A DNA stretch of 64,000 nt from Candidatus Hydrogenedens sp. (GCA_035361075.1 DAOSBX010000013.1:10160-74159), one strand, 5' to 3'; shown: positions 13,578 through 64,000, numbered from the stretch's first letter. Numbers and translations are program-made. The notes: generated by a model not told the origin, from the sequence alone.

Positions 13578-15959
13578 ATGAAAAATTATTATTGGAAGCT
13601 TTTTTTATACGTCAAAAAAATTTTTTTGTGCATTACCATACTTCTAATTCTAATCTACCCATTGAAAGCATATCCCTTGAAAGCAGGGTCTGCCAAGGCG
13701 GAGATTACACCTGATTTAGGTGTGCCATTAAATGGGTATGGTGCACGGTTAGGGAAAGGTGCACGTGCCGTTCATGACCCACTCTGGGTACATGTCCTTT
13801 ATTTGAATGATGACCAAACAGAGGTATTTATTGTATCGTTAGACCTTTGTGTTATTGACCGTGAACTTCGTGACCGCGTTATTGCAATGGCACCTGACAA
13901 TATTTCACCTACAAACATTATCATGACCGCAACGCATACACATAATGGCTTTGGTGGAATGTGTAAGTATTACCCAATTCGATTTGTTTCAGGAAGATAC
14001 ATACCCGAACTAATTGAACGTACTGCACGAATTATTGCCCAAACCCTTCGAGAAGCGAAAAATAACGCAAAAAATGCAGTATTAGGATATGGGACTATCC
14101 AGCAGACAGATTTAACATGTAACCGACGCTATTCAGGTGGTCCTATGGACCCTCAAGTCGGTTTTATCGTTTCGGAAGATGCAAATGGGAATGAGATTGC
14201 TATTGTAGCGAATATGGCAGGTCACCCAACGTCTATTGGTGATGAGGATTTTTTCTCCTTCTCTGCTGATTATCCAGGCTATTTTTATCGTGAAATAGAA
14301 AAATTAGCCAGTCCAGGATGTGTACCCCTATTTTTGAATGGAGCGGAAGGAAACCAAACTATTCAAGCACCAGAAAATACTTCAGGGTGGGCAAGAACAG
14401 AGAAGGTAGGTCAATTATTAGCCCAACGGATTTATGACGCTCAAAAGAGCATACCGTTTTCAGATGTAAAACTAAAATTCAATTCACAAGAAATTGATTT
14501 GCCCATGAGCATTGCTGAGTTTTTCCCAAAAAAAATAGTGTTCCAATCATTACAGATCAATGACCTCGCGATTTCTTTCTTTCCTGGTGAGCTATGTGTT
14601 GAATATGCACTTCAGTTAAGAGAACTTGCGATTATGGCAGGGTTCAAAGCCCATTTTACTGTGGGCTTGTCTAATGATTACCTTTTATATTTTGTGCCCA
14701 AGCACCTTTTATTTGACCGCACTTATGAAGCAGGGATGCATTTCTTTGGACCGCAAGCGGAACAATGGGTTATTAATTCCTGTCTTAACGTATTAGGAGC
14801 GGAGCAGTTCAAACAGCAGATAGATAACACCACTCTACCTGAGAGAGAACAGACAGATATTGGGATAAGTATCATGCGGTTAACTGGAACACCTTACCAG
14901 AGAGGACTTACACGGGGAAGATTATATAAAGAGATTGTTCAGAAACGATATGAACAACTTATTTTATCCCCAGTAAAAGAAGGCAAATATCTGCCCGAAG
15001 AAGGATTATTATCTTCCTTGCCAACTTCATGGATTGATGCAAGTAGTATTATCCTACCAGCAATGGCTATTAGCATTCGTCCATGGGCTTCTATGGTGCA
15101 TCCAGATGTAATTGAAGAGCTGACAGGTCTTTCTGACGGGACAGAAGTAGCCTTCGATAAAATATGGCTTTTACAAAATGCACTCAATATAAAAACTGCC
15201 CAGACTTATAACCCATTATTTGACACGCCTTTATGCACTGCTATCGCAGTATTTGGAGAACGCGCTGGAGCAAAAGATTTATTGATAGGGCATACAATTG
15301 ACTGGGCTGAAAGTGAAACGCCAACTGTTTTTTACCATCAACCAAACGATGGTATTAAGTTTGTAGAAGTAAGTTTCCCATGGTTTTATGGTACCTTATG
15401 TGGGATGAATGAAGCAGGAATTGTACTATCAGTCACACGTGATACGAGCAAATTGGATTTATCTGAGAAAAACCCAGGACCTGAATTTACATTGAAACAT
15501 ATCTTGTCAAAGTTAACAAACTTTGAAACTGTGATTAGTGAAGTAGAAAAAATAAAATTTCCAGCTGGGTATCACACTATCATTGCTGGTAAAAGCGCAA
15601 AAGGAAAATGGGTAGCCCAAACGTTCCCCTCACATCCTTCGGAAGATATTTCTACGGAGGCATTGAAAAATCAAGGTGTTGTATTGGGGTGTGGTTCATT
15701 AGTGTCTTCATCTGAAACTACAGTAAAGAGATATTCGATATTACTTAAGAAGGTTGAGGAGGAGCGAATTATAAGTACGGACGAATTAAAAGCCATAATG
15801 ACATTTTCTGATGAGGAGGACGTTTCACTTCCTCAGATATGGAATGAACAAAGTAGGTGCACTGTAATTTTTGAACCTACTGAAAAAAAGATATGGATAA
15901 CGATAAGAAGAGATGATGGAAAACCATCAAGTTATATATCAATGGAGTTAAACAACTAA
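13578..15959 (+). CDS. Fusion protein: N-terminal neutral/alkaline-ceramidase-like domain plus C-terminal peptidase-C45 (acyl-CoA:6-APA acyltransferase-type Ntn hydrolase) domain
   Basis: N-terminus: signal/TM then GYGARLGKGARAVHDPLWV...ATHTHNGFGG, matching the neutral ceramidase catalytic domain (ATHTHSGPGG-type motif). C-terminus: PLCTAIAVFG (candidate autoproteolytic Cys nucleophile) and GMNEAGIVLSVT, typical of the C45 family. Confidence 0.7.
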   Translation: MKNYYWKLFLYVKKIFLCITILLILIYPLKAYPLKAGSAKAEITPDLGVPLNGYGARLGKGARAVHDPLWVHVLYLNDDQTEVFIVSLDLCVIDRELRDRVIAMAPDNISPTNIIMTATHTHNGFGGMCKYYPIRFVSGRYIPELIERTARIIAQTLREAKNNAKNAVLGYGTIQQTDLTCNRRYSGGPMDPQVGFIVSEDANGNEIAIVANMAGHPTSIGDEDFFSFSADYPGYFYREIEKLASPGCVPLFLNGAEGNQTIQAPENTSGWARTEKVGQLLAQRIYDAQKSIPFSDVKLKFNSQEIDLPMSIAEFFPKKIVFQSLQINDLAISFFPGELCVEYALQLRELAIMAGFKAHFTVGLSNDYLLYFVPKHLLFDRTYEAGMHFFGPQAEQWVINSCLNVLGAEQFKQQIDNTTLPEREQTDIGISIMRLTGTPYQRGLTRGRLYKEIVQKRYEQLILSPVKEGKYLPEEGLLSSLPTSWIDASSIILPAMAISIRPWASMVHPDVIEELTGLSDGTEVAFDKIWLLQNALNIKTAQTYNPLFDTPLCTAIAVFGERAGAKDLLIGHTIDWAESETPTVFYHQPNDGIKFVEVSFPWFYGTLCGMNEAGIVLSVTRDTSKLDLSEKNPGPEFTLKHILSKLTNFETVISEVEKIKFPAGYHTIIAGKSAKGKWVAQTFPSHPSEDISTEALKNQGVVLGCGSLVSSSETTVKRYSILLKKVEEERIISTDELKAIMTFSDEEDVSLPQIWNEQSRCTVIFEPTEKKIWITIRRDDGKPSSYISMELNN

Positions 15960-28926: not shown

Positions 28927-30486
28927 CTATTCCGGGAAGAGACCGATGGGAGCAGATAGAGATTGATTGATTATCGCCTGTATGTCAGAGGCTCCCAACC
29001 CATTACCGTCAACATCTATATCTTTATCAATTGGTGTAATGCCCAAAATGACCTCTACTGCAAGGTCTACATCTTCATCGTTTACTTTATCATCTCCATT
29101 AATGTCACCATCGCTCAGGGGAACATCTTGACGCGTTGCCCATCCATCAACGACCTCAACCCCATTTACACGGTAGGGAATATATCCGGGTACAGTAAAA
29201 GCAAGGTTGTATATGCCGGGTAATAATAGTCGGTGATAATTCCCAACACGCGGATGAGTAAATACGGGTTGTGTGTTCCCCTGCACTAAAACTTTTGTCC
29301 AGACAGGATTTCCCGTTTTTCTATCATATACAAGTCCTCGCACTCCTCGTAAAATACACTCTAAATAAGACAGCATAGATTCTCGATTATTATTCCACAG
29401 TGTCGGTATCCATGACCCTGCTGGAAATTTAGTATTGTATAACTCTATTGTCATTTCAATACATCCTGTAAAGCGATAATTCCAGTCTTGCATACCCCCC
29501 GTAATAACATACCATGCTGCGCCATTTGTTATCCCACCGGGAAATTGGGAACTGTTATACATAGGTGTGTTATACATAGCATATTGCGTGGCTATCCACT
29601 TCATTAGAGCATCATCTGGTGTAGGTGCTTCCACACCACTGGGTCCTCCGTCGTTATCGTAGGGATAATTCACAACCATAGCACCTGTATGAAAATTTGC
29701 GGATAGACTAAAATTATGTTCTAATGACCATCGCATAATATGCTGTGTCTCAGGTTGCCGTGTTTCAATAGATATGTTACCCCCATCATAATAAAATGTG
29801 TCAAAGTCGGTAGGATAACGAGGAAAAGAACGGTTTAAATCCACTCCGTTAGCATTATATCGTGATACCGTCTCACGTCCATCTGGATTTATCAAAGGCA
29901 CAATCCATATAGAAACCTCATCAACAACATTTTTTATTCTCGTATCTGTGGAATAGTTTTGTAGAAGATATTCCGCAAAAAGCAAACACAATTCCGTTCC
30001 AATGGGTTCATCTCCATGTATTGTGGAAATATACTTAAACTCTGGTTCATCTTCTTCTATATCTGGGTTATCTGTAATGTGAAGTGCCCATAACTCTCGC
30101 CCCTGTACAGATTGTCCCAATGAAGTTAGGCGGGTAAGATCTGGATACGTATTAGTGAGGCTTTGTAAAAATTGTGTTAATTCCGCATAGTTATGATACC
30201 CCGAAGGTGTTTTTTCTAAGTGAGGTGAAGGGTCTGTTCCTATAACTTGTAGTTCAAAACCCTCGTTTTTTAGTTTTTCCATTGCGGATTCTGGAATATA
30301 AACATGTGCATATCGTCCATCAAACGAATCAACAGAATAACCTTGTTGCTCAAGATAATCAATATCCGACATGTTTTCAATGTTTACTTTCACAATATAT
30401 CGGACAGGTAAAGATGCCTTCTGTGCAAAAGATTCGTTTTCTAACAAGTAACAAATAAGTAATAAAATAAATGCTAACTTCTTCAC
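28927..30486 (-). CDS. Secreted M14-family zinc carboxypeptidase with C-terminal dockerin-like module
   Basis: Signal peptide. HGDEPIGTE (HxxE zinc site). C-terminal tandem Ca-binding dockerin-type repeats DINGDDKVNDEDVDLAVEVILG and DVDGNGLGASDIQAIINQSL. Confidence 0.75.
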   Translation of the reverse strand: MKKLAFILLLICYLLENESFAQKASLPVRYIVKVNIENMSDIDYLEQQGYSVDSFDGRYAHVYIPESAMEKLKNEGFELQVIGTDPSPHLEKTPSGYHNYAELTQFLQSLTNTYPDLTRLTSLGQSVQGRELWALHITDNPDIEEDEPEFKYISTIHGDEPIGTELCLLFAEYLLQNYSTDTRIKNVVDEVSIWIVPLINPDGRETVSRYNANGVDLNRSFPRYPTDFDTFYYDGGNISIETRQPETQHIMRWSLEHNFSLSANFHTGAMVVNYPYDNDGGPSGVEAPTPDDALMKWIATQYAMYNTPMYNSSQFPGGITNGAAWYVITGGMQDWNYRFTGCIEMTIELYNTKFPAGSWIPTLWNNNRESMLSYLECILRGVRGLVYDRKTGNPVWTKVLVQGNTQPVFTHPRVGNYHRLLLPGIYNLAFTVPGYIPYRVNGVEVVDGWATRQDVPLSDGDINGDDKVNDEDVDLAVEVILGITPIDKDIDVDGNGLGASDIQAIINQSLSAPIGLFPE

Positions 30487-42077: not shown

Positions 42078-42566
42078 TTATCGTAATCTTTGTAAAGGTT
42101 GACCATTATAACAAAGAGTATTCCCGCAAATGTCAGCCGCTACTGTTTGTGTTTGACCCATGAAAGAAACAGTCGCCACTATCTTGTTCCCTTGCACCCG
42201 CCAATTGCCTGTGATATTCCCTACCATGGGATGTGAAGCGACTGCTTGTCCCCCAGGATTTAAACTCACCTGTACCATACCATAAGGCGTAGGAACACTC
42301 CACATCGTCCCTGTAAAGTCTGGCGGTCCTTGTGGAATCTGTGGAACCTGATATTGTACTTGTGGGATGGCTTCTTGTGTCGGTGGGGGAACTAATTTGT
42401 TGGGATTTGGCTCCAGATTAGACGCCGTCGTTTGTTGGTTTGATTTTGACGTTGTTGGAGCCGAAGGTGTCGAAGTTGGTAAGAATTGATTTTTCAATCC
42501 AGCCAGAATTGGAACTCCTATTACCAATACAAGAATTACAATAAAAATTATCAAGCCCCGATTCAT
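42078..42566 (-). CDS. Membrane-anchored small protein, paralog A of a tandem pair
   Basis: N-terminal signal-anchor IIFIVILVLVIGVPILAGLKN, Pro/Gln-rich linker, conserved 80-aa C-terminal domain (GNW.V.G.K.A..F.G.T..V..DI.G). Confidence 0.5.
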   Translation of the reverse strand: MNRGLIIFIVILVLVIGVPILAGLKNQFLPTSTPSAPTTSKSNQQTTASNLEPNPNKLVPPPTQEAIPQVQYQVPQIPQGPPDFTGTMWSVPTPYGMVQVSLNPGGQAVASHPMVGNITGNWRVQGNKIVATVSFMGQTQTVAADICGNTLCYNGQPLQRLR

Positions 42567-42601: not shown

Positions 42602-43066
42602 TTATTGGGCTCGTTTAATTTCCTTATCCTGAAAATAAATTTTGTCTCCGTAAATATCACATTCCACTGAGTGTGTTTTCCCTTGGAAATTAATTGATGC
42701 GATAAGTTTTCCACCATTGACCTGCCAATTCCCAACTAAATGGTCTGTACCTAACATTTGTATTGCAAGCGCTCTCAACTCTGGCGGAACCGTCGCAACA
42801 GCCTGTCCCCCTGCATTTAGGGTTATGGTGACAGGGGCTGGGATTGAAGGGTGTTTTACAATCCACGACGTCCCTACAAGATTCGATTCGTTAAGCAATG
42901 GTGGAGCAGGTTTCGGCTTCGTTGTCGGACCAGATGCCTCTTCTTTAGTATCTGCGGAATTCATCATCATCTGAACCATGATAATATTTTTTATTACCGC
43001 TAAAAAGGGAACTCCAATAACAAGAAATAGAATTAGGAAAAAAATTCCCAATATTTTTTTATTCAC
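42602..43066 (-). CDS. Membrane-anchored small protein, paralog B of a tandem pair
   Basis: Same N-terminal anchor motif (FLILFLVIGVPFLAVIKN) and C-terminal domain (LNAGGQAVA...GNWQVNGGKLIASINFQGKTHSVECDIYG) as paralog A. Confidence 0.5.
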   Translation of the reverse strand: MNKKILGIFFLILFLVIGVPFLAVIKNIIMVQMMMNSADTKEEASGPTTKPKPAPPLLNESNLVGTSWIVKHPSIPAPVTITLNAGGQAVATVPPELRALAIQMLGTDHLVGNWQVNGGKLIASINFQGKTHSVECDIYGDKIYFQDKEIKRAQ

Positions 43067-59282: not shown

Positions 59283-59320
59283 TTGCAGGGACCTAAAACT
59301 TTAGGTCCCTGCAATTTTTG
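59283..59320. terminator. Bidirectional rho-independent terminator between trxB and the convergent surface-protein gene
   Basis: 15-bp perfect inverted repeat TTGCAGGGACCTAAA / TTTAGGTCCCTGCAA with a 2-nt loop, followed by TTTTTG. Confidence 0.6.
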
Positions 59321-59356: not shown

Positions 59357-61645
59357 CTATTTACGTTCCTGCCTTTTTATAGCACTCAAAGAGATTAGAG
59401 CAACACATATCAATGCAAGGTCTAATAACCCTTTCCCTTTATTCTGGCTTGTTGTTGTTTCTTCTGCGGATTTACTTCCAGCACAACCTTTAATAACATT
59501 TGGAATTCTAATCAGAGCATCTCTACATGAATCACAATTTAACCAATCAAGTATGAATGCAGAAACAATAAAAATAGCACCAAATCCAGGTATATCTCTT
59601 AACAATACCTGTTGAATATTTCCTGTCGGAGTAGCGGATTGATTCGGTGTACGAGGTGTATTGGTGATGTTAGTAGTGGTTTCTCCTTCACCAGGAACCG
59701 CCGTACTTCCCCCTGTCCCTGCTCCACCACTACCTCCACCAGTGCCACTTCCACCTCCACCACTTCCACCTCCTCCACCTCCACCACTACCACCACCTCC
59801 ACCACCACTTGAAGCACCGCTGAAATTAAATGTTGTTGTATTTGAGGTGAATTGACTTCCTGATGATAATATGTAAGAAAGAATTGTTTGAATTGAACAT
59901 GAAGAGGTAGCGGTAGAAGGAACACCTGCATTTATATCGAAGGTAAATGGTATCGATGGAATGGTTGTCCATACAAATTCAAGTGGAGTTACCCCGTCTG
60001 ATATTGTTCCAACCGTAGGAGATACTTGGGGTCCATTTGTACAACCTAAATATTGCCATCCCGCAGGTATATAACAAGTCAAAGTTAAACTTGTAATATC
60101 TCCCCCTGAAGTACCATTGCATGTAATTCTAACTGTTACATTACTCCCAGGAACATAATAATCTCCAGAAACAGTCCCAATAATTTGCTGATTAATCACA
60201 ATATTTGTCTCGACTGCACCTTCTGGAGTTCCTTCTGGAATACCTTCATTAATTCCTTCAGGTTGCCCTTCAGGACAGGGTCCTGTAGATACTAAGATAC
60301 TTACAGAACTATTCTGTATCGCTTGTGTTCCCGCTTGTGGATTCTGGTCTATTATAATTCCAGCACTTACATTATTGTTACACTGATATGTTATTGTTCC
60401 CACATTCAGGTCTGCCCCTGCAAGTGTATTCCCTGCTGTAGTAATATCTGACCCAATAACATTTGGTACAGTAGTAAGACAAGGTCCTGTTGATACAACA
60501 ATATTTACTGCACTTCCTGGCAATACTTGCTCTCCTGGTTCAGGATACTGGTCTATTACTCTACCTACTGCTACTGAATTACTACACTGTTCGGTTGCAG
60601 TCCCTACTATTAACCCTGACGAAATGATTGTATTCTCCGCAGAACTTCTCTCCATACCTACAACATTAGGTACAGTATACTGCCATCCAAAGTAAGGGTA
60701 GGTCTCATTTTCTACAATGTCCCATACATTAATAAAATCCCATCCTGTAAAAGTCATTTGTTTTTTCATATCAATTGTCGTTTTACCTATCCCCTCATCT
60801 GAATTACTCTGACCCGAAGCGTTTATATCCCAATAACTATTATTTACTGCTCCATATTCGTTATACCCAACAAAACCTCCAACACGATTCATACCCGAAA
60901 CAAGTCCAGCCGAATAACATTCTGTTATTGAACCATCATTCAATCCAACAAAACCACCAATGTTATAAGACGCTCCAGAAATTGCTCCTAATGCGTAGCA
61001 TTGCACCACAGTTCCTACGTTCCAGCCTATCAATCCACCAGCATTATCCGCACCAGAAAGTGAACACGTAGAAAAAGATCGCGAAATGTTTCCATTACCA
61101 CTACTATAACTAATATTTACCCCGACCAGACCGCCAAGGTAATTTACTCCTGATACGGCCCCAGAAGAAGAACACTTTGTTATATTCCCTCCACTATTCC
61201 AACCAACTAAACTACCAACAAAATAATTTCCCGATACATTGGCATTGTCTAACTTTAAGTCAGATACCCAACCACCAGGACCTACATATCCAAACAAACC
61301 AATATTATCTTGATTTGAATCATTAATATATAAATTTTTTATAACATGCCCTTTCCCATTAAATCCACCAGTGAATGGTTTTAACGCTGTCCCTATGGGG
61401 GCAAAACCTTTGCCACCATTCCAATTGACTGTATCACTTGCGTCAATGTCTTGAGTTAATTCATACGCACCATCTATTGGATATGACACATCATTACCTA
61501 TTTTTTGCAAATTATCAATACTGTTGATAGGAATAACTGCATATCCTTGCAAACTTATACAAATCAAAGAAATCCCAAACCAAACAGCACAAATACACTT
61601 ACTGCTTAAAAATACCGTTTCTCTTCCCTTCGAAAAGTAATTCAT
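59357..61645 (-). CDS. Large secreted/surface protein: GLUG repeats, 2 PASTA domains, PEG repeats, Ig-like region, (GGS)n linker, hydrophobic C-terminal tail
   Basis: Signal peptide. Repeated GLUG-type motifs (GLFGYVG, GGLVGVN, GGLIGWNVG, GGFVGLNDG, GGFVGYNEYG). Two PASTA-like units VPNVVGM...IVVSTGPC and VPNVIGS...ILVSTGPC. PEGQPEGINEGIPEGTPEG. 60-aa Gly/Ser tract. C-terminal ...IPGFGAIFIVSAFIL...LLDLALICVALISLSAIKRQERK. Confidence 0.7.
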   Translation of the reverse strand: MNYFSKGRETVFLSSKCICAVWFGISLICISLQGYAVIPINSIDNLQKIGNDVSYPIDGAYELTQDIDASDTVNWNGGKGFAPIGTALKPFTGGFNGKGHVIKNLYINDSNQDNIGLFGYVGPGGWVSDLKLDNANVSGNYFVGSLVGWNSGGNITKCSSSGAVSGVNYLGGLVGVNISYSSGNGNISRSFSTCSLSGADNAGGLIGWNVGTVVQCYALGAISGASYNIGGFVGLNDGSITECYSAGLVSGMNRVGGFVGYNEYGAVNNSYWDINASGQSNSDEGIGKTTIDMKKQMTFTGWDFINVWDIVENETYPYFGWQYTVPNVVGMERSSAENTIISSGLIVGTATEQCSNSVAVGRVIDQYPEPGEQVLPGSAVNIVVSTGPCLTTVPNVIGSDITTAGNTLAGADLNVGTITYQCNNNVSAGIIIDQNPQAGTQAIQNSSVSILVSTGPCPEGQPEGINEGIPEGTPEGAVETNIVINQQIIGTVSGDYYVPGSNVTVRITCNGTSGGDITSLTLTCYIPAGWQYLGCTNGPQVSPTVGTISDGVTPLEFVWTTIPSIPFTFDINAGVPSTATSSCSIQTILSYILSSGSQFTSNTTTFNFSGASSGGGGGGSGGGGGGGSGGGGSGTGGGSGGAGTGGSTAVPGEGETTTNITNTPRTPNQSATPTGNIQQVLLRDIPGFGAIFIVSAFILDWLNCDSCRDALIRIPNVIKGCAGSKSAEETTTSQNKGKGLLDLALICVALISLSAIKRQERK

Positions 61646-62110
61646 AGCATCTTTCCTATATTGATTTTTTATTTATAATAAGAAAATTAAAGTTAACTGT
61701 TTTAAATAAACTAACTTTATATTATCTATTAAGGGGGGTGAAAATATAACTTACAATAAGTAATCAAAATATATTTGACTGCCTTCCTACCATATTATTA
61801 TGGCAACTATTTTTTTATTATACAAATACGTTCCTTTATGTGAGAAAGAAATAAGATAAATAATCTCACCTTTTTCCATCGATTTATCTACATTACTTTA
61901 TATCATATCGTGTCAGGAATTTCAAATTACAGTCTTGAAAGAGATGTTACCATAATCATAATAGAAATTTTTTATAAAGATATGTTATAACAATCGTCAT
62001 TCAAAAAATAGAATTTAGTTCTAAAAAGCAGTTGTTAGTAAAAAAATCGAATAAATAGGGATATTGACCAATAATTTTTTACAAATATGAAATCAGGATG
62101 TTTTTAAGAT

Positions 62111-62683
62111 ATGGGAATAAAGGTTGTTCATTTTAAGTGCCATCATTGTGGTCATTGTTGCCGAGATGTTATTTGTTGTCCGACACCATTCGATGTAATT
62201 CAGATAGTTAAGGCAACAAATTTAAGTCCAAAAGAGTTTTTAGAATTTGTAACGCCTGAAGATATTCAGGGTATTGCCAAGTCTGACCCGACATGGCTTA
62301 AAGTTAATGGTAAAAAGTATATGATGGCTCTGAAACGAACTCAGAAAGGATGTTTTTTCCGCGACACTAAAAATGGTTTTTGCAAGGTATATCACCACCG
62401 CCCTTTATTATGCAGGTTATTTCCATTTAAATTGAGACAAAAAAGGTCTGGCGAGGTTCATTCATTCTCATTACACAAAGATGTTGGCTGTCCAAAACAT
62501 CGTGATGGTCTGGTAAATGTTGAAGAACTAACAAAAATATGGGAAGAAGACCAAGAACACCAACAGGATTACCAGGAGTTAGTCGCATATTTTAATAGTC
62601 AACATAAATCTGCAAACACACCATTTGACTTTATTGATTTATTCGTGGTGATAATAAAAAGTAAACGAATAAGTACAAAATAA
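62111..62683 (+). CDS. YkgJ-family Cys-cluster protein (putative Zn/Fe-chelating domain, UPF0153)
   Basis: CHHCGHCC (CxxCxxCC) near the N-terminus, further Cys (CFF..C, CRLFPF). 190 aa. Confidence 0.6.
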   Translation: MGIKVVHFKCHHCGHCCRDVICCPTPFDVIQIVKATNLSPKEFLEFVTPEDIQGIAKSDPTWLKVNGKKYMMALKRTQKGCFFRDTKNGFCKVYHHRPLLCRLFPFKLRQKRSGEVHSFSLHKDVGCPKHRDGLVNVEELTKIWEEDQEHQQDYQELVAYFNSQHKSANTPFDFIDLFVVIIKSKRISTK

Positions 62684-62721
62684 AGAAAAGAAAACGAAAA
62701 ATTAACAGAAGGAATTTAACA

Positions 62722-63561
62722 ATGAAGACCATCCTCATACTCACATTAGCCATTGCCTTTTTATTATCCACCAATGTCGGTGGTGCAGAACCATTAAAGG
62801 TTCTTTATCTCACCAAATCTTCAGGTTTCGAACATAGTGTAGTGAAACGAGAAAACAATCAACTTTCCTTTTCCGAAAAAATTTTAGTAGAGTTGGGAAA
62901 TAAAAATGGTTGGCAGGTCGAGTGCACTAAAGATGCCTCAAAAATCAATGCTGAGAATTTAAATAATTACGATGTCGTAATTTTTTATACCTCTGGCGAT
63001 TTAACAGAAGCAGGTACTGATGGACAACCCCCTATGAAGTCCGAAGGGGAACAAGAACTAATTAAATGGATACAGAATGGAGGTGGTTTTATTGGTATAC
63101 ATCCAGCAAACGACAGTTTCCATTCTAAGGGGGATAAAATAAGTGATTATGTAAAAATGTTAGGAGGTGAATTCGCAACACATGGCAAACAATTCAAAGG
63201 AAAACTCGAAATTGTAAGTAAAGGACATCCCGCCTTAGGAAACTTCCCCGATGGCTGGGAAACAGAAGAAGAATGGTATTTGATGAAAAATATGAACAAA
63301 GAAATCATGCATGTGTTGATATTACTAAATCCAGGTGAAGAACGGAAGAAACAGGAAATGTATAATGTCCCGAGTTATCCGATTGTTTGGTGTCATGAAT
63401 TTGGAAAGGGACGAGTAGTATATAATGGATTGGGTCATCGCGAAGATGTTTGGGAAAGTTCCCAATATCAAGAACTCCTAAAGTCAAATATCATTTGGGC
63501 AAGTGGACAAGGTCCTGCTCAGGCAGAACCCAACTACCAAAAGGTGATGCCAGAAAAATAA
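62722..63561 (+). CDS. ThuA-domain (class-I glutamine-amidotransferase-like) secreted protein
   Basis: Signal peptide. KVLYLTKSSGFEH, GGGFIGIHPA, YPIVWCHEFGKGRVVYNGLGH are conserved ThuA blocks. Confidence 0.75.
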   Translation: MKTILILTLAIAFLLSTNVGGAEPLKVLYLTKSSGFEHSVVKRENNQLSFSEKILVELGNKNGWQVECTKDASKINAENLNNYDVVIFYTSGDLTEAGTDGQPPMKSEGEQELIKWIQNGGGFIGIHPANDSFHSKGDKISDYVKMLGGEFATHGKQFKGKLEIVSKGHPALGNFPDGWETEEEWYLMKNMNKEIMHVLILLNPGEERKKQEMYNVPSYPIVWCHEFGKGRVVYNGLGHREDVWESSQYQELLKSNIIWASGQGPAQAEPNYQKVMPEK

Positions 63562-63614
63562 AGACTAAGCCAATCCTTGCTCTTTATATTGTTTTCAAAA
63601 AAATTCTGCCTGCT

Positions 63615-64000
63615 TTAACTAATAAAATTTGAGAGCAGGATTATTGTTGTTGCCTCGTATAAAGCAGCGATAGCAAGCAAACATGCAGAGGCAAGAGTCG
63701 CAGAGATTAGAATACGGAAACCCTTTGTAAATTTCATCAAACAATTTTTCCGTGTAAATAAAACGTTCCAGACATAATATGTCCAGAGTAAAACGGCAAA
63801 AACAGCCAATATATATGCCTCTAATTCCAAAACAATAGTTATAGAATGAAATGTCAGTCGCACAGCCGTTCCTGCCCAAATAGGAGCCATTGCATAACCT
63901 GCAAATGCAAAGCTAACCAAATTCTTCAATACCCCTAATAGAAATGGAGGGATAGAAATAAGTATTGTTAATAAAAATGTTTGAACCCAGAAATTGTTGT
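63615..64000 (-). CDS. Integral membrane protein, 3' portion (gene probably starts beyond the window end)
   Basis: Hydrophobic minus-strand ORF that continues to the window boundary. Confidence 0.3.
   Translation of the reverse strand, partial: NNFWVQTFLLTILISIPPFLLGVLKNLVSFAFAGYAMAPIWAGTAVRLTFHSITIVLELEAYILAVFAVLLWTYYVWNVLFTRKNCLMKFTKGFRILISATLASACLLAIAALYEATTIILLSNFIS

Follow-up and report, generated by a model that had tools for sequence, protein, structure and literature searches.

A gene on the minus strand of a 64,000-nucleotide stretch of DNA from Candidatus Hydrogenedens sp. (GCA_035361075.1 DAOSBX010000013.1:10160-74159; the whole stretch is called the window below) encodes a modular protein of the cell envelope that is probably exported by Sec and anchored at its C-terminus; the protein is a member of a large paralogous family expanded in this lineage. 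The family is abundant, already annotated and functionally uncharacterised, and it belongs to an uncultured phylum. It is proposed that after Sec export and removal of the signal peptide the chain would run, from its distal end inwards, through a GLUG head, two PASTA beads, an acidic PEG linker, a beta-sandwich, a disordered stalk of about 65 residues and an anchoring region, with the beta-helical binding head displayed on a stalk made of PASTA beads, beta-sandwich and disordered residues. The anchor would consist of a Cys-containing juxtamembrane stretch, an LLD motif with a hydrophobic helix of about 15-18 residues (H2), and a KRQERK tail placed in the cytoplasm (N-out/C-in). A first-pass annotation of this DNA had described a secreted, envelope, adhesin-like modular protein with an Ig-like segment, and this description is supported, the Ig-like segment being a predicted beta-sandwich. 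The open reading frame and the features which that annotation had listed (GLUG, two PASTA domains, PEG, Gly/Ser, a PGF-like hydrophobic segment named here H1, a Cys segment and KRQERK) are all present where it had placed them. The parts of the gene product are as follows (class B is a type of C-terminal tail described further on).

59357..61645, minus strand: complete coding sequence with an ATG start, 762 residues plus stop codon, NCBI name 'PASTA domain-containing protein'
61538..61645, minus strand: predicted Sec signal peptide, residues 1-36 (hydrophobicity profile and -3/-1 rule; n-region K6/R8, h-region CICAVWFGISLICISL, cleavage site between GYA and VI)
60680..61537, minus strand: GLUG right-handed beta-helix head, residues 37-322 (Pfam Glug; AlphaFold2 with predicted local distance difference test, pLDDT, above 90; Foldseek)
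60476..60679, minus strand: PASTA unit 1, residues 323-390, Cys pair C354/C389 (Pfam, PDB sequence search, AlphaFold2, Foldseek)
60272..60475, minus strand: PASTA unit 2, residues 391-458, Cys pair C422/C457 (Pfam, PDB sequence search, AlphaFold2, Foldseek)
60212..60271, minus strand: short acidic PEG/EG-repeat linker, residues 459-478, with a 12-nt DNA repeat at 60218-60247
59810..60211, minus strand: lineage-restricted beta-sandwich, cohesin-/adhesin-Ig-like, residues 479-612 (local phmmer, cropped AlphaFold2, Foldseek)
59618..59809, minus strand: flexible stalk made of a Gly/Ser run, residues 613-648 (36 residues), and a Thr/Pro/Asn-rich part, residues 649-676 (pLDDT below 40)
59549..59593, minus strand: H1, the 'PGF-like' hydrophobic segment IPGFGAIFIVSAFIL, residues 685-699, an orphan insertion and no sorting motif
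59471..59539, minus strand: Cys-containing juxtamembrane segment NCDSC-RDALIRIPNVIK-GCAGSK, residues 703-725, aligning to NCGCC-GCSCS of the relatives P0026 and P0028 with a 12-residue insertion
59360..59431, minus strand: H2, the putative terminal anchor GLLDLALICVALISLSAI, residues 739-756, with the basic stop-transfer tail KRQERK, residues 757-762; together with residues 720-738 it is read as a diverged class-B tail

Signal peptide and GLUG head

The protein appears to begin with a Sec signal peptide cleaved just ahead of the beta-helix start. Paralogues have the same N-terminal layout, in which an Ala immediately precedes the conserved sequence 'VIxIxSIxxLQKIGND' where the beta-helix begins, and in the AlphaFold2 model, which was built on a 44-sequence alignment, confidence is high from about residue 40 (97 in the first decade block) and pLDDT stays above 90 across approximately residues 40-460. 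Hidden Markov model (HMM) searches placed both repeat families proposed by the first-pass annotation above their Pfam cutoffs. For Glug (PF07581, cutoff 20.5 bits) the whole protein scores 38.2 bits and its N-terminal 324 residues 54.5 bits in five stretches. The closest folds of the head in Foldseek are BACOVA_03286 (3n6z; template modelling score, TM-score, 0.66 over 331 columns) and the beta-helix domains of IgA1 proteases (7uvk, E 1.4e-4; 6xja, E 9.2e-4). With BACOVA_03286 and the M26 IgA1 proteases of streptococci and Gemella the protein has in common the GLUG repeats, a right-handed beta-helix of about 290 residues and the same capping motif, which in the head under study reads SYWD...GKTT..MK....F.GWDF..VW at the C-terminal end. 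In contrast to those proteases it has no M26 metalloprotease domain, and PASTA units and a beta-sandwich stand in place of the catalytic domain. It was also considered whether the protein itself is an M26 IgA1 protease; this was rejected, as there is no HExxH motif and a single His in 762 residues, and the NCBIfam ZmpA model reaches 8.6 bits against a cutoff of 3000. The earlier suggestion of a possible enzyme is therefore not upheld, no enzymatic motif having been found in the sequence. The head, a beta-helix of the kind that makes up the non-catalytic N-terminal domain of M26 proteins, would rather serve as a ligand-binding surface.

PASTA units

The two PASTA units are supported by sequence and by modelled fold. 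The protein reaches 98.6 bits with the Pfam PASTA model (PF03793, cutoff 23.2), in two stretches of which the best spans model positions 1-64 of 64; the NCBIfam model PknB_PASTA_kin aligns as well (residues 318-456), and a sequence search of the PDB returned 3py9 at E 7.7e-11. Since the modelled pair superposes on the PrkC/PknB arrays (3py9, 5e10, 5e12) with a root-mean-square deviation of 2.1-2.5 A over about 133 columns, and on the bent pair of penicillin-binding protein (PBP) 2x at about 15 A, it is modelled as an extended rod. The likeness to the PASTA arrays of the PknB/PrkC/Stk1 kinases (3py9, 3m9g, 5e10, 5e12) comprises the Pfam family, the alpha+beta fold with its helix packed against a three-stranded beta-sheet, the extended head-to-tail arrangement and the extracytoplasmic position. 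The differences are that no kinase or transpeptidase domain is present, that the units are internal to an adhesin-like protein whose bacterial source is predicted to be Gram-negative, that each of the two has a conserved Cys pair, and that paralogues contain up to 16 units.

Of the 120 best homologues, 39 contain PASTA units by a local HMM, 1-16 per protein and 185 altogether. Cys occupies the two positions in 125/185 and 122/185 of them and both together in 121/185, and because of this co-occurrence the pair probably forms a disulfide; C354-C389 and C422-C457 would thus probably staple the two units. Binding of muropeptides, peptidoglycan or beta-lactams is known not to hold for all PASTA domains. 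In the protein described here the units are probably in the main rigid spacer beads, and they may also make contact with peptidoglycan.

The first-pass annotation had stated that PASTA domains are classically restricted to PBPs and kinases and that their presence in a GLUG protein is unusual. The restriction does not apply to this lineage, as the 39 PASTA-bearing homologues show, and the novelty was overstated: of the top 120 homologues about 30 have both PF03793 and PF07581, metagenome-assembled genomes (MAGs) of Hydrogenedens commonly encode this pairing, and the NCBI name of the protein already mentions PASTA. It can be said that PASTA is not confined to the PBPs and kinases of Gram-positive bacteria and that in Hydrogenedens it serves as a Cys-paired bead, with as many as 16 tandem copies, in adhesin-like proteins whose diderm host is predicted to bear lipopolysaccharide (LPS). 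The name 'PASTA' should therefore be read with caution, for it need not mean a sensor of peptidoglycan or beta-lactams.

Linkers and beta-sandwich

Behind the PASTA pair lies the PEG/EG linker, which is far longer in the paralogues, and then a beta-rich segment (residues 479-612) that has no match in Pfam. Its sequence relatives are only P0026 and P0028, at about 100 bits in local phmmer, and a metagenome scan for further ones returned the P0026/P0028 lineage again. When this segment was cropped and modelled by AlphaFold2 on a three-sequence alignment, the best model was a 10-strand beta-sandwich with pLDDT 90.7 and a predicted TM-score (pTM) of 0.84. The closest folds are cohesins (TM-scores 0.66 for 2vo8, 0.65 for 2jh2, 0.63 for 2w1n and 0.59 for 5nrm) and an Ig-like domain of the pilin/adhesin type (5xcb, 0.67), so 'Ig-like' is a fair label for it. 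The likeness to these sandwiches (2vo8, 2jh2, 5nrm, 5xcb; TM-scores 0.59-0.67) is one of fold, with no similarity at the level of sequence.

The DNA of the Gly/Ser linker (59722-59810) is an imperfect tandem repeat with a period of 15 nt, 5.8 copies and 73% matches. A contig of an NCBI MAG, JAIWNQ010000200.1 (L011:1-1842), breaks exactly at this repeat, and the gene is split there into partial products of 614 and 148 residues. Among the five full-length copies of the gene that were compared the length of the repeat is not polymorphic.

Proposed C-terminal anchor

The last 43 or so residues of the protein are concluded, from sequence comparison, to be a diverged class-B tail and the probable anchor. 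Class B designates C-termini in which some 15 residues separate a Cys motif from LLDF and a hydrophobic helix, with a basic tail behind them. The only proteins which share the C-terminal half of the chain, P0026 and P0028, have its parts in the same order: beta-sandwich (at the about 100 bits given above), linker, Cys motif, LLD helix and basic tail. In the alignment NCDSC, a 12-residue insert and GCAGS (the Cys residues being C704, C707 and C721) stand opposite NCGCC-GCSCS, and K-G-LLDL opposite K-Y-LLDF. From C721 to the start of H2 at G739 there are 17 residues, and KRQERK then closes the chain. H2 is drawn by AlphaFold2 as a helix (residues 738-761) with the highest confidence within the C-terminal half. 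An HMM made of 15 class-B tails, from which the protein was left out, gives its last 43 residues 13.3 bits; zone-preserving shuffles of the tail score 0.8 +/- 2.9 bits, and 2/2000 of them reach that value. It is the collinearity and the shuffle test, and not an E-value at database level, that underlie the reading of the tail as a diverged class B. Its divergence is clear from the lack of KDMPSFDGFMKY, the best-conserved juxtamembrane stretch of class B, and from the CGC motif being split by 12 residues.

H1, which lies upstream of this module, is by the alignments a species-specific hydrophobic insertion; in P0026 and P0028 it is aligned to an acidic EG linker. It is probably seated at the membrane interface and does not serve as a recognition motif. 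Its origin as an internal duplicate of the terminal anchor was considered and rejected: the DNA local score was reached by 341/1,000 codon shuffles, the protein-level score of H1 against the anchor falls short of the mean of the shuffles, and with the class-B HMM H1 gets -1.5 bits.

Class-B tails in Hydrogenedens genomes

The C-termini of the 120 best homologues include 18 of class A (a duplicated Ca-loop module which looks like a dockerin), 9 of class B, 6 C-terminal domains of the type IX secretion system (T9SS) and 6 other transmembrane anchors, the protein described here being counted among the last 6. The layout of class B is a CGC motif, a juxtamembrane stretch KDMPSFDGFMKYLLD, a transmembrane helix (TM) and a basic end, and it can be written CGC-x2-4-K-DMPSFDGFMKYLLD-TM-basic, with the consensus C-G-C-x2-4-K-D-M-P-S-F-D-G-F-M-K-Y-L-L-D-hydrophobic-K/R. 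Membership was defined here by the pattern CGC-x2-4-K-~10 residues-[WM]-K-Y-L-L-D-TM-basic. In the alignment A1 the positions G9, C10 and D28 are invariant, as are the CGC and LLD motifs within class-B tails. A scan of the genome collection with an alignment of four class-B tails found 11 loci (L013-L023; MAGs DAOOVZ01, CAZJTZ01, CALLRP01, JBMFRC01 and AWNW01), all in Hydrogenedens-type MAGs, six of them on different contigs of one MAG (DAOOVZ01). Two of the 11 belong to a MAG labelled Nitrospirales and one to an unclassified MAG. The carriers are GLUG proteins, GLUG proteins with PASTA units, one protein with EF-hands only and one without a Pfam match, and the tail always follows a low-complexity linker. 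No model in Pfam or NCBIfam matched class-B tails (five tails, NCBIfam at E<=10). By these comparisons class B is a portable and strongly conserved module and a candidate for a new sorting or anchoring signal. The lineage has at least two conserved C-terminal modules outside Pfam and NCBIfam, the Cys-motif/transmembrane tail and the duplicated Ca-loop, dockerin-like tail, both of them candidate sorting or assembly signals.

Some further observations concern individual loci. L016 and L018 (CAZJTZ010000007.1 and CAZJTZ010000004.1), deposited as 'uncultured Nitrospirales bacterium', encode Hydrogenedens-type GLUG/PASTA proteins with class-B tails, the protein of L018 being the same as P0028; this suggests that the 'Nitrospirales' MAG CAZJTZ is mislabelled or mis-binned. 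Downstream of the class-B gene P0040, at L027:12734-17612, there are four tiny open reading frames (44-64 residues), two GNAT acetyltransferases, a Rce1-like/CPBP protease (PF02517) and an ABC ATPase, which together look like a cluster of the bacteriocin/immunity type. A T2SSE ATPase lies at L028:15123-16652, within a few kb of a gene with a class-B tail, and near another class-B gene there is, at L017:5149-6405, a polytopic open reading frame of 418 residues, judged GspF-like from its N-terminal sequence only. Genes of the type II secretion system (T2SS) or type IV pilus kind near class-B genes may be coincidental.

Alternative explanations

The first-pass annotation had interpreted IPGFGAIFIVSAFIL as a PGF-CTERM-like signal for an enzyme of the archaeosortase/exosortase family. 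The likeness to PGF-CTERM substrates of archaeosortase A is literal: P-G-F-G abuts a hydrophobic run after a Thr/Pro/Ser-rich linker, as in the archaeal proteins, and archaeal GLUG homologues do bear C-terminal membrane anchors (P0114 has the source name 'PGF-pre-PGF domain-containing protein', and P0030 is similar). In sorting signals processed within the membrane, however, the motif abuts the transmembrane helix, a basic cluster stands at the extreme C-terminus, many proteins carry the signal and a cognate enzyme exists (PMC11980579). In the protein under study PGF occupies residues 686-688 of 762, 74 residues from the C-terminus, and 63 residues follow H1, which has a core of 15 residues between D684 and D700; next comes the net negative, Cys-containing DWLNCDSCRD, and a basic cluster follows H2 only. 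The host, moreover, is a bacterium. Neither TIGR04126 nor any other NCBIfam CTERM model matched the whole protein at E<=1 or isolated fragments (three from its tail and five tails of class-B homologues) at E<=10, the HMMER filters dropping most matches above E of about 0.1. When the last 100 residues were compared by exhaustive phmmer with 1.84 billion representative proteins, the search returned the protein itself and one other entry, P0121, a eukaryotic NACHT/LRR-type (NLR) repeat protein that was discarded as spurious. A word-index search with the tail and the beta-rich segment had also been empty, yet it missed the protein's own entry, which makes its negatives for fragments of 100-136 residues unreliable, and they were replaced by the exhaustive and local phmmer searches. 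The expectation of a motif shared with other secreted proteins fared no better, for the tails of the two neighbouring GLUG paralogues of the same genome are unlike this one. The window and the rest of the 73.7-kb contig yielded no gene for an exosortase, archaeosortase, sortase, rhomboid or CPBP protein. As all of these points speak against it, H1 is taken to be no sorting signal, and the archaeosortase model, already largely refuted, is most improbable; what the first-pass annotation had rightly recognised is a C-terminal hydrophobic helix with a basic tail resembling a sorting or anchoring signal, which is H2 with KRQERK. It follows that likeness to a literal PGF tripeptide can mislead and that position, basic cluster, HMM match and recurrence need checking. 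Alternatively, H1 and H2 could cross the membrane as a pair of helices, a hairpin whose Cys-rich loop is cytoplasmic and whose C-terminus points outwards; in favour of this, two hydrophobic cores of equal strength lie about 40 residues apart and AlphaFold2 draws both as helices. With this arrangement the KRQERK tail, of charge +3, would be outside and the loop inside would be near-neutral, in violation of the positive-inside rule, and the Asp-bounded core of H1, modelled with pLDDT below 50, is short for a span. The conflict with that rule, together with the absence of H1 from all relatives, in which H2 with a basic tail is the conserved design, disfavours the hairpin and leaves it unlikely.

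A single C-terminal anchor formed by H2 is preferred, and several points count against the architecture built on it. The 15-residue cores of H1 and H2 are equally hydrophobic (Kyte-Doolittle 2.3 and 2.5) and neither is a long classical transmembrane helix; the C-terminal 300 residues have low confidence in the full-length AlphaFold2 model; the five cropped models of the beta-sandwich spread from pLDDT 34 to 91; and an HMM of eight class-B tails gives the protein 3.9 bits (E about 0.9), the best score of any non-member and not significant. A plain inner-membrane anchor would also leave the head in the periplasm, while homologous heads elsewhere bear T9SS or archaeal surface anchors, and paralogues with as many as 16 PASTA units would exceed the length of a periplasm. 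From the length of these paralogues and the surface anchors of the homologous heads it follows that a further export step may exist. The same two points are in favour of class-B-type tails being a processed sorting signal with the protein as one of its substrates: after Sec export an intramembrane protease would cleave the tail near the Cys motif, the new C-terminus or the Cys would be lipidated, and the protein would be transferred, for example through the T2SS, to the outside of the outer membrane, by analogy with MYXO-CTERM/myxosortase or GlyGly-CTERM/rhombosortase. The tripartite layout with its invariant Cys fits such processing, as do the multiple copies in one MAG with differing passengers behind a low-complexity linker. 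Like the Cys-containing tripartite signals MYXO-, JDVT-, Synerg- and CGP-CTERM, class B stands at the extreme C-terminus and joins a linker, a Cys motif (often with two nearby Cys), a helix and a basic cluster. Two class-B loci have T2SS-type genes in their vicinity, and a third has a CPBP gene. In contrast to those signals, in which the motif abuts the helix, class B keeps a conserved spacer of about 15-17 residues between Cys and helix, its basic tail is rich in Lys and not in Arg, no curated CTERM model matches any class-B tail, and the copy in the protein described here is degenerate. Near four class-B loci the search for a cognate sorting enzyme found only scattered T2SS-type genes and the CPBP (PF02517) gene of the bacteriocin-like cluster, which does not recur at the others and scores below threshold (MrtJ, 20 against 75 bits; Mrt_core, 16 against 100 bits). 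Processing of this kind is accordingly considered a possibility on the doubtful side. An alternative of the scaffoldin type, in which the beta-sandwich is a cohesin analogue that captures dockerin-looking class-A tails and so tethers secreted GLUG paralogues to the cell, seems improbable. Cohesin modules are among its best fold matches, class-A modules, repeated twice, close 18/120 homologues, a neighbouring protein of 1590 residues included, and the sandwich was found only in membrane-anchored class-B proteins. Nevertheless Foldseek gives these matches modest E-values (3e-4 to 5e-3) and pilin/adhesin Ig-like folds score equally, neither the domain nor its profile matches any cohesin by sequence, and class-A tails give sub-threshold EF-hand matches and no Dockerin_1 match.

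A broader and quite tentative idea would join these elements: class B would be an undescribed, phylum-restricted sorting signal with an enzyme of its own that brings giant beta-helix/PASTA fibrils to the diderm cell surface; the copy in the protein described here would be decaying or neofunctionalised (split Cys motif, inserted helix), and its cohesin-like sandwich could dock class-A tails. If true, Hydrogenedentota would with such docking possess a surface assembly in the style of a cellulosome.

As to the class-A module itself, its motif D-x-N-G-D-W-x-I-x-L-S-E-L-L-R-V-I-Q-F-F-N-x-G-x-Y-H-x-C...EDGYCPG is doubled, resembles a Cys-containing dockerin/EF-hand pair and belongs to no Pfam family. 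The neighbouring carrier lies at L005:4337-9109 (cut in L001:1-4038, just past window position 64000). On the minus strand of the window (28927-30486) lies a gene for an M14 zinc carboxypeptidase; the enzyme has a signal peptide and, at its end, two repeats of the DxNxDG type (GDINGDDKVN...DVDGNGLGASD), dockerin-like in look although their E against Dockerin_1 is only 0.86.

Copies of the gene and flanking signals

The gene is real and no assembly artefact, because near-identical copies with the same gene order come from independent samples. Full-length copies were found on five contigs (L006-L010) of independent Logan, JGI and NCBI assemblies and samples, the NCBI MAG GCA_035359475.1 among them, with 0-4 nt differences and unchanged gene order; a sixth copy, in the NCBI MAG GCA_020216745.1, is cut at a contig end and comprises 614 residues. 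The adjoining CxxCxxCC gene is carried by at least 23 contigs. An I222V variant of the protein is deposited as HOK09176.1, HOL19230.1 and HPP58943.1, also as a 'PASTA domain-containing protein' of Candidatus Hydrogenedens sp. With so few differences between copies the population is clonal and gives no variation usable for selection analysis. An origin of the tail from a frameshift or an alternative frame was rejected, the other two frames being rich in stop codons. The Rfam scan of the locus gave no match, and a Shine-Dalgarno-like AGGAAAG precedes the ATG by 6 nt. Two flanking elements were noted.

59283..59314, no strand assigned: terminator-like hairpin of 14 bp with 7 G-C, a consensus match only, 43 nt beyond the stop codon, between the gene and the convergent trxB
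61817..61846, minus strand: -35/-10 pair resembling a promoter, some 170 nt before the ATG, in a region where the number of promoter-like sites is not above chance

Lineage, envelope and gene neighbourhood

A word-index search with the whole protein gave 4,356 matches, of which the best named ones are mostly Hydrogenedens/Hydrogenedentes MAGs. The setting is taken to be diderm, because the window encodes a GT9 heptosyltransferase, a DUF481 protein and a MacB/adaptor pump, and the phylum has been predicted to have an LPS-containing Gram-negative envelope with peptidoglycan of the meso-diaminopimelic acid type (PMC11406978).

Three large genes of the GLUG family lie within about 20 kb (window 59357-64000 into L005:1-13333): the one described here, that of the 1590-residue protein and P0019 (1110 residues), the latter two 5-14 kb away, just past the end of the window. 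Their endings differ, being class-B-like, class A and 'LPLGGW-TM-RIGIKPK'. Between them there are ThuA, a conserved polytopic protein of 514 residues, for which NCBIfam gave no match and no precomputed Pfam match is on record, and a ceramidase-like gene. Ceramidase-like (PF04734) genes occur twice on the contig, at window 13578-15959 (plus strand) and L001:4526-5926, and the former is fused to a domain similar to acyl-CoA:6-aminopenicillanic acid acyltransferase (PF03417), a pairing unusual for a bacterium. Two adjacent small paralogues of 162 and 154 residues are encoded on the minus strand of the window (42078-42566 and 42602-43066), and they have similar N-terminal membrane or signal segments and C-terminal '...GNW.V.G.K..A...F.G.T..V..DI.G...' motifs.

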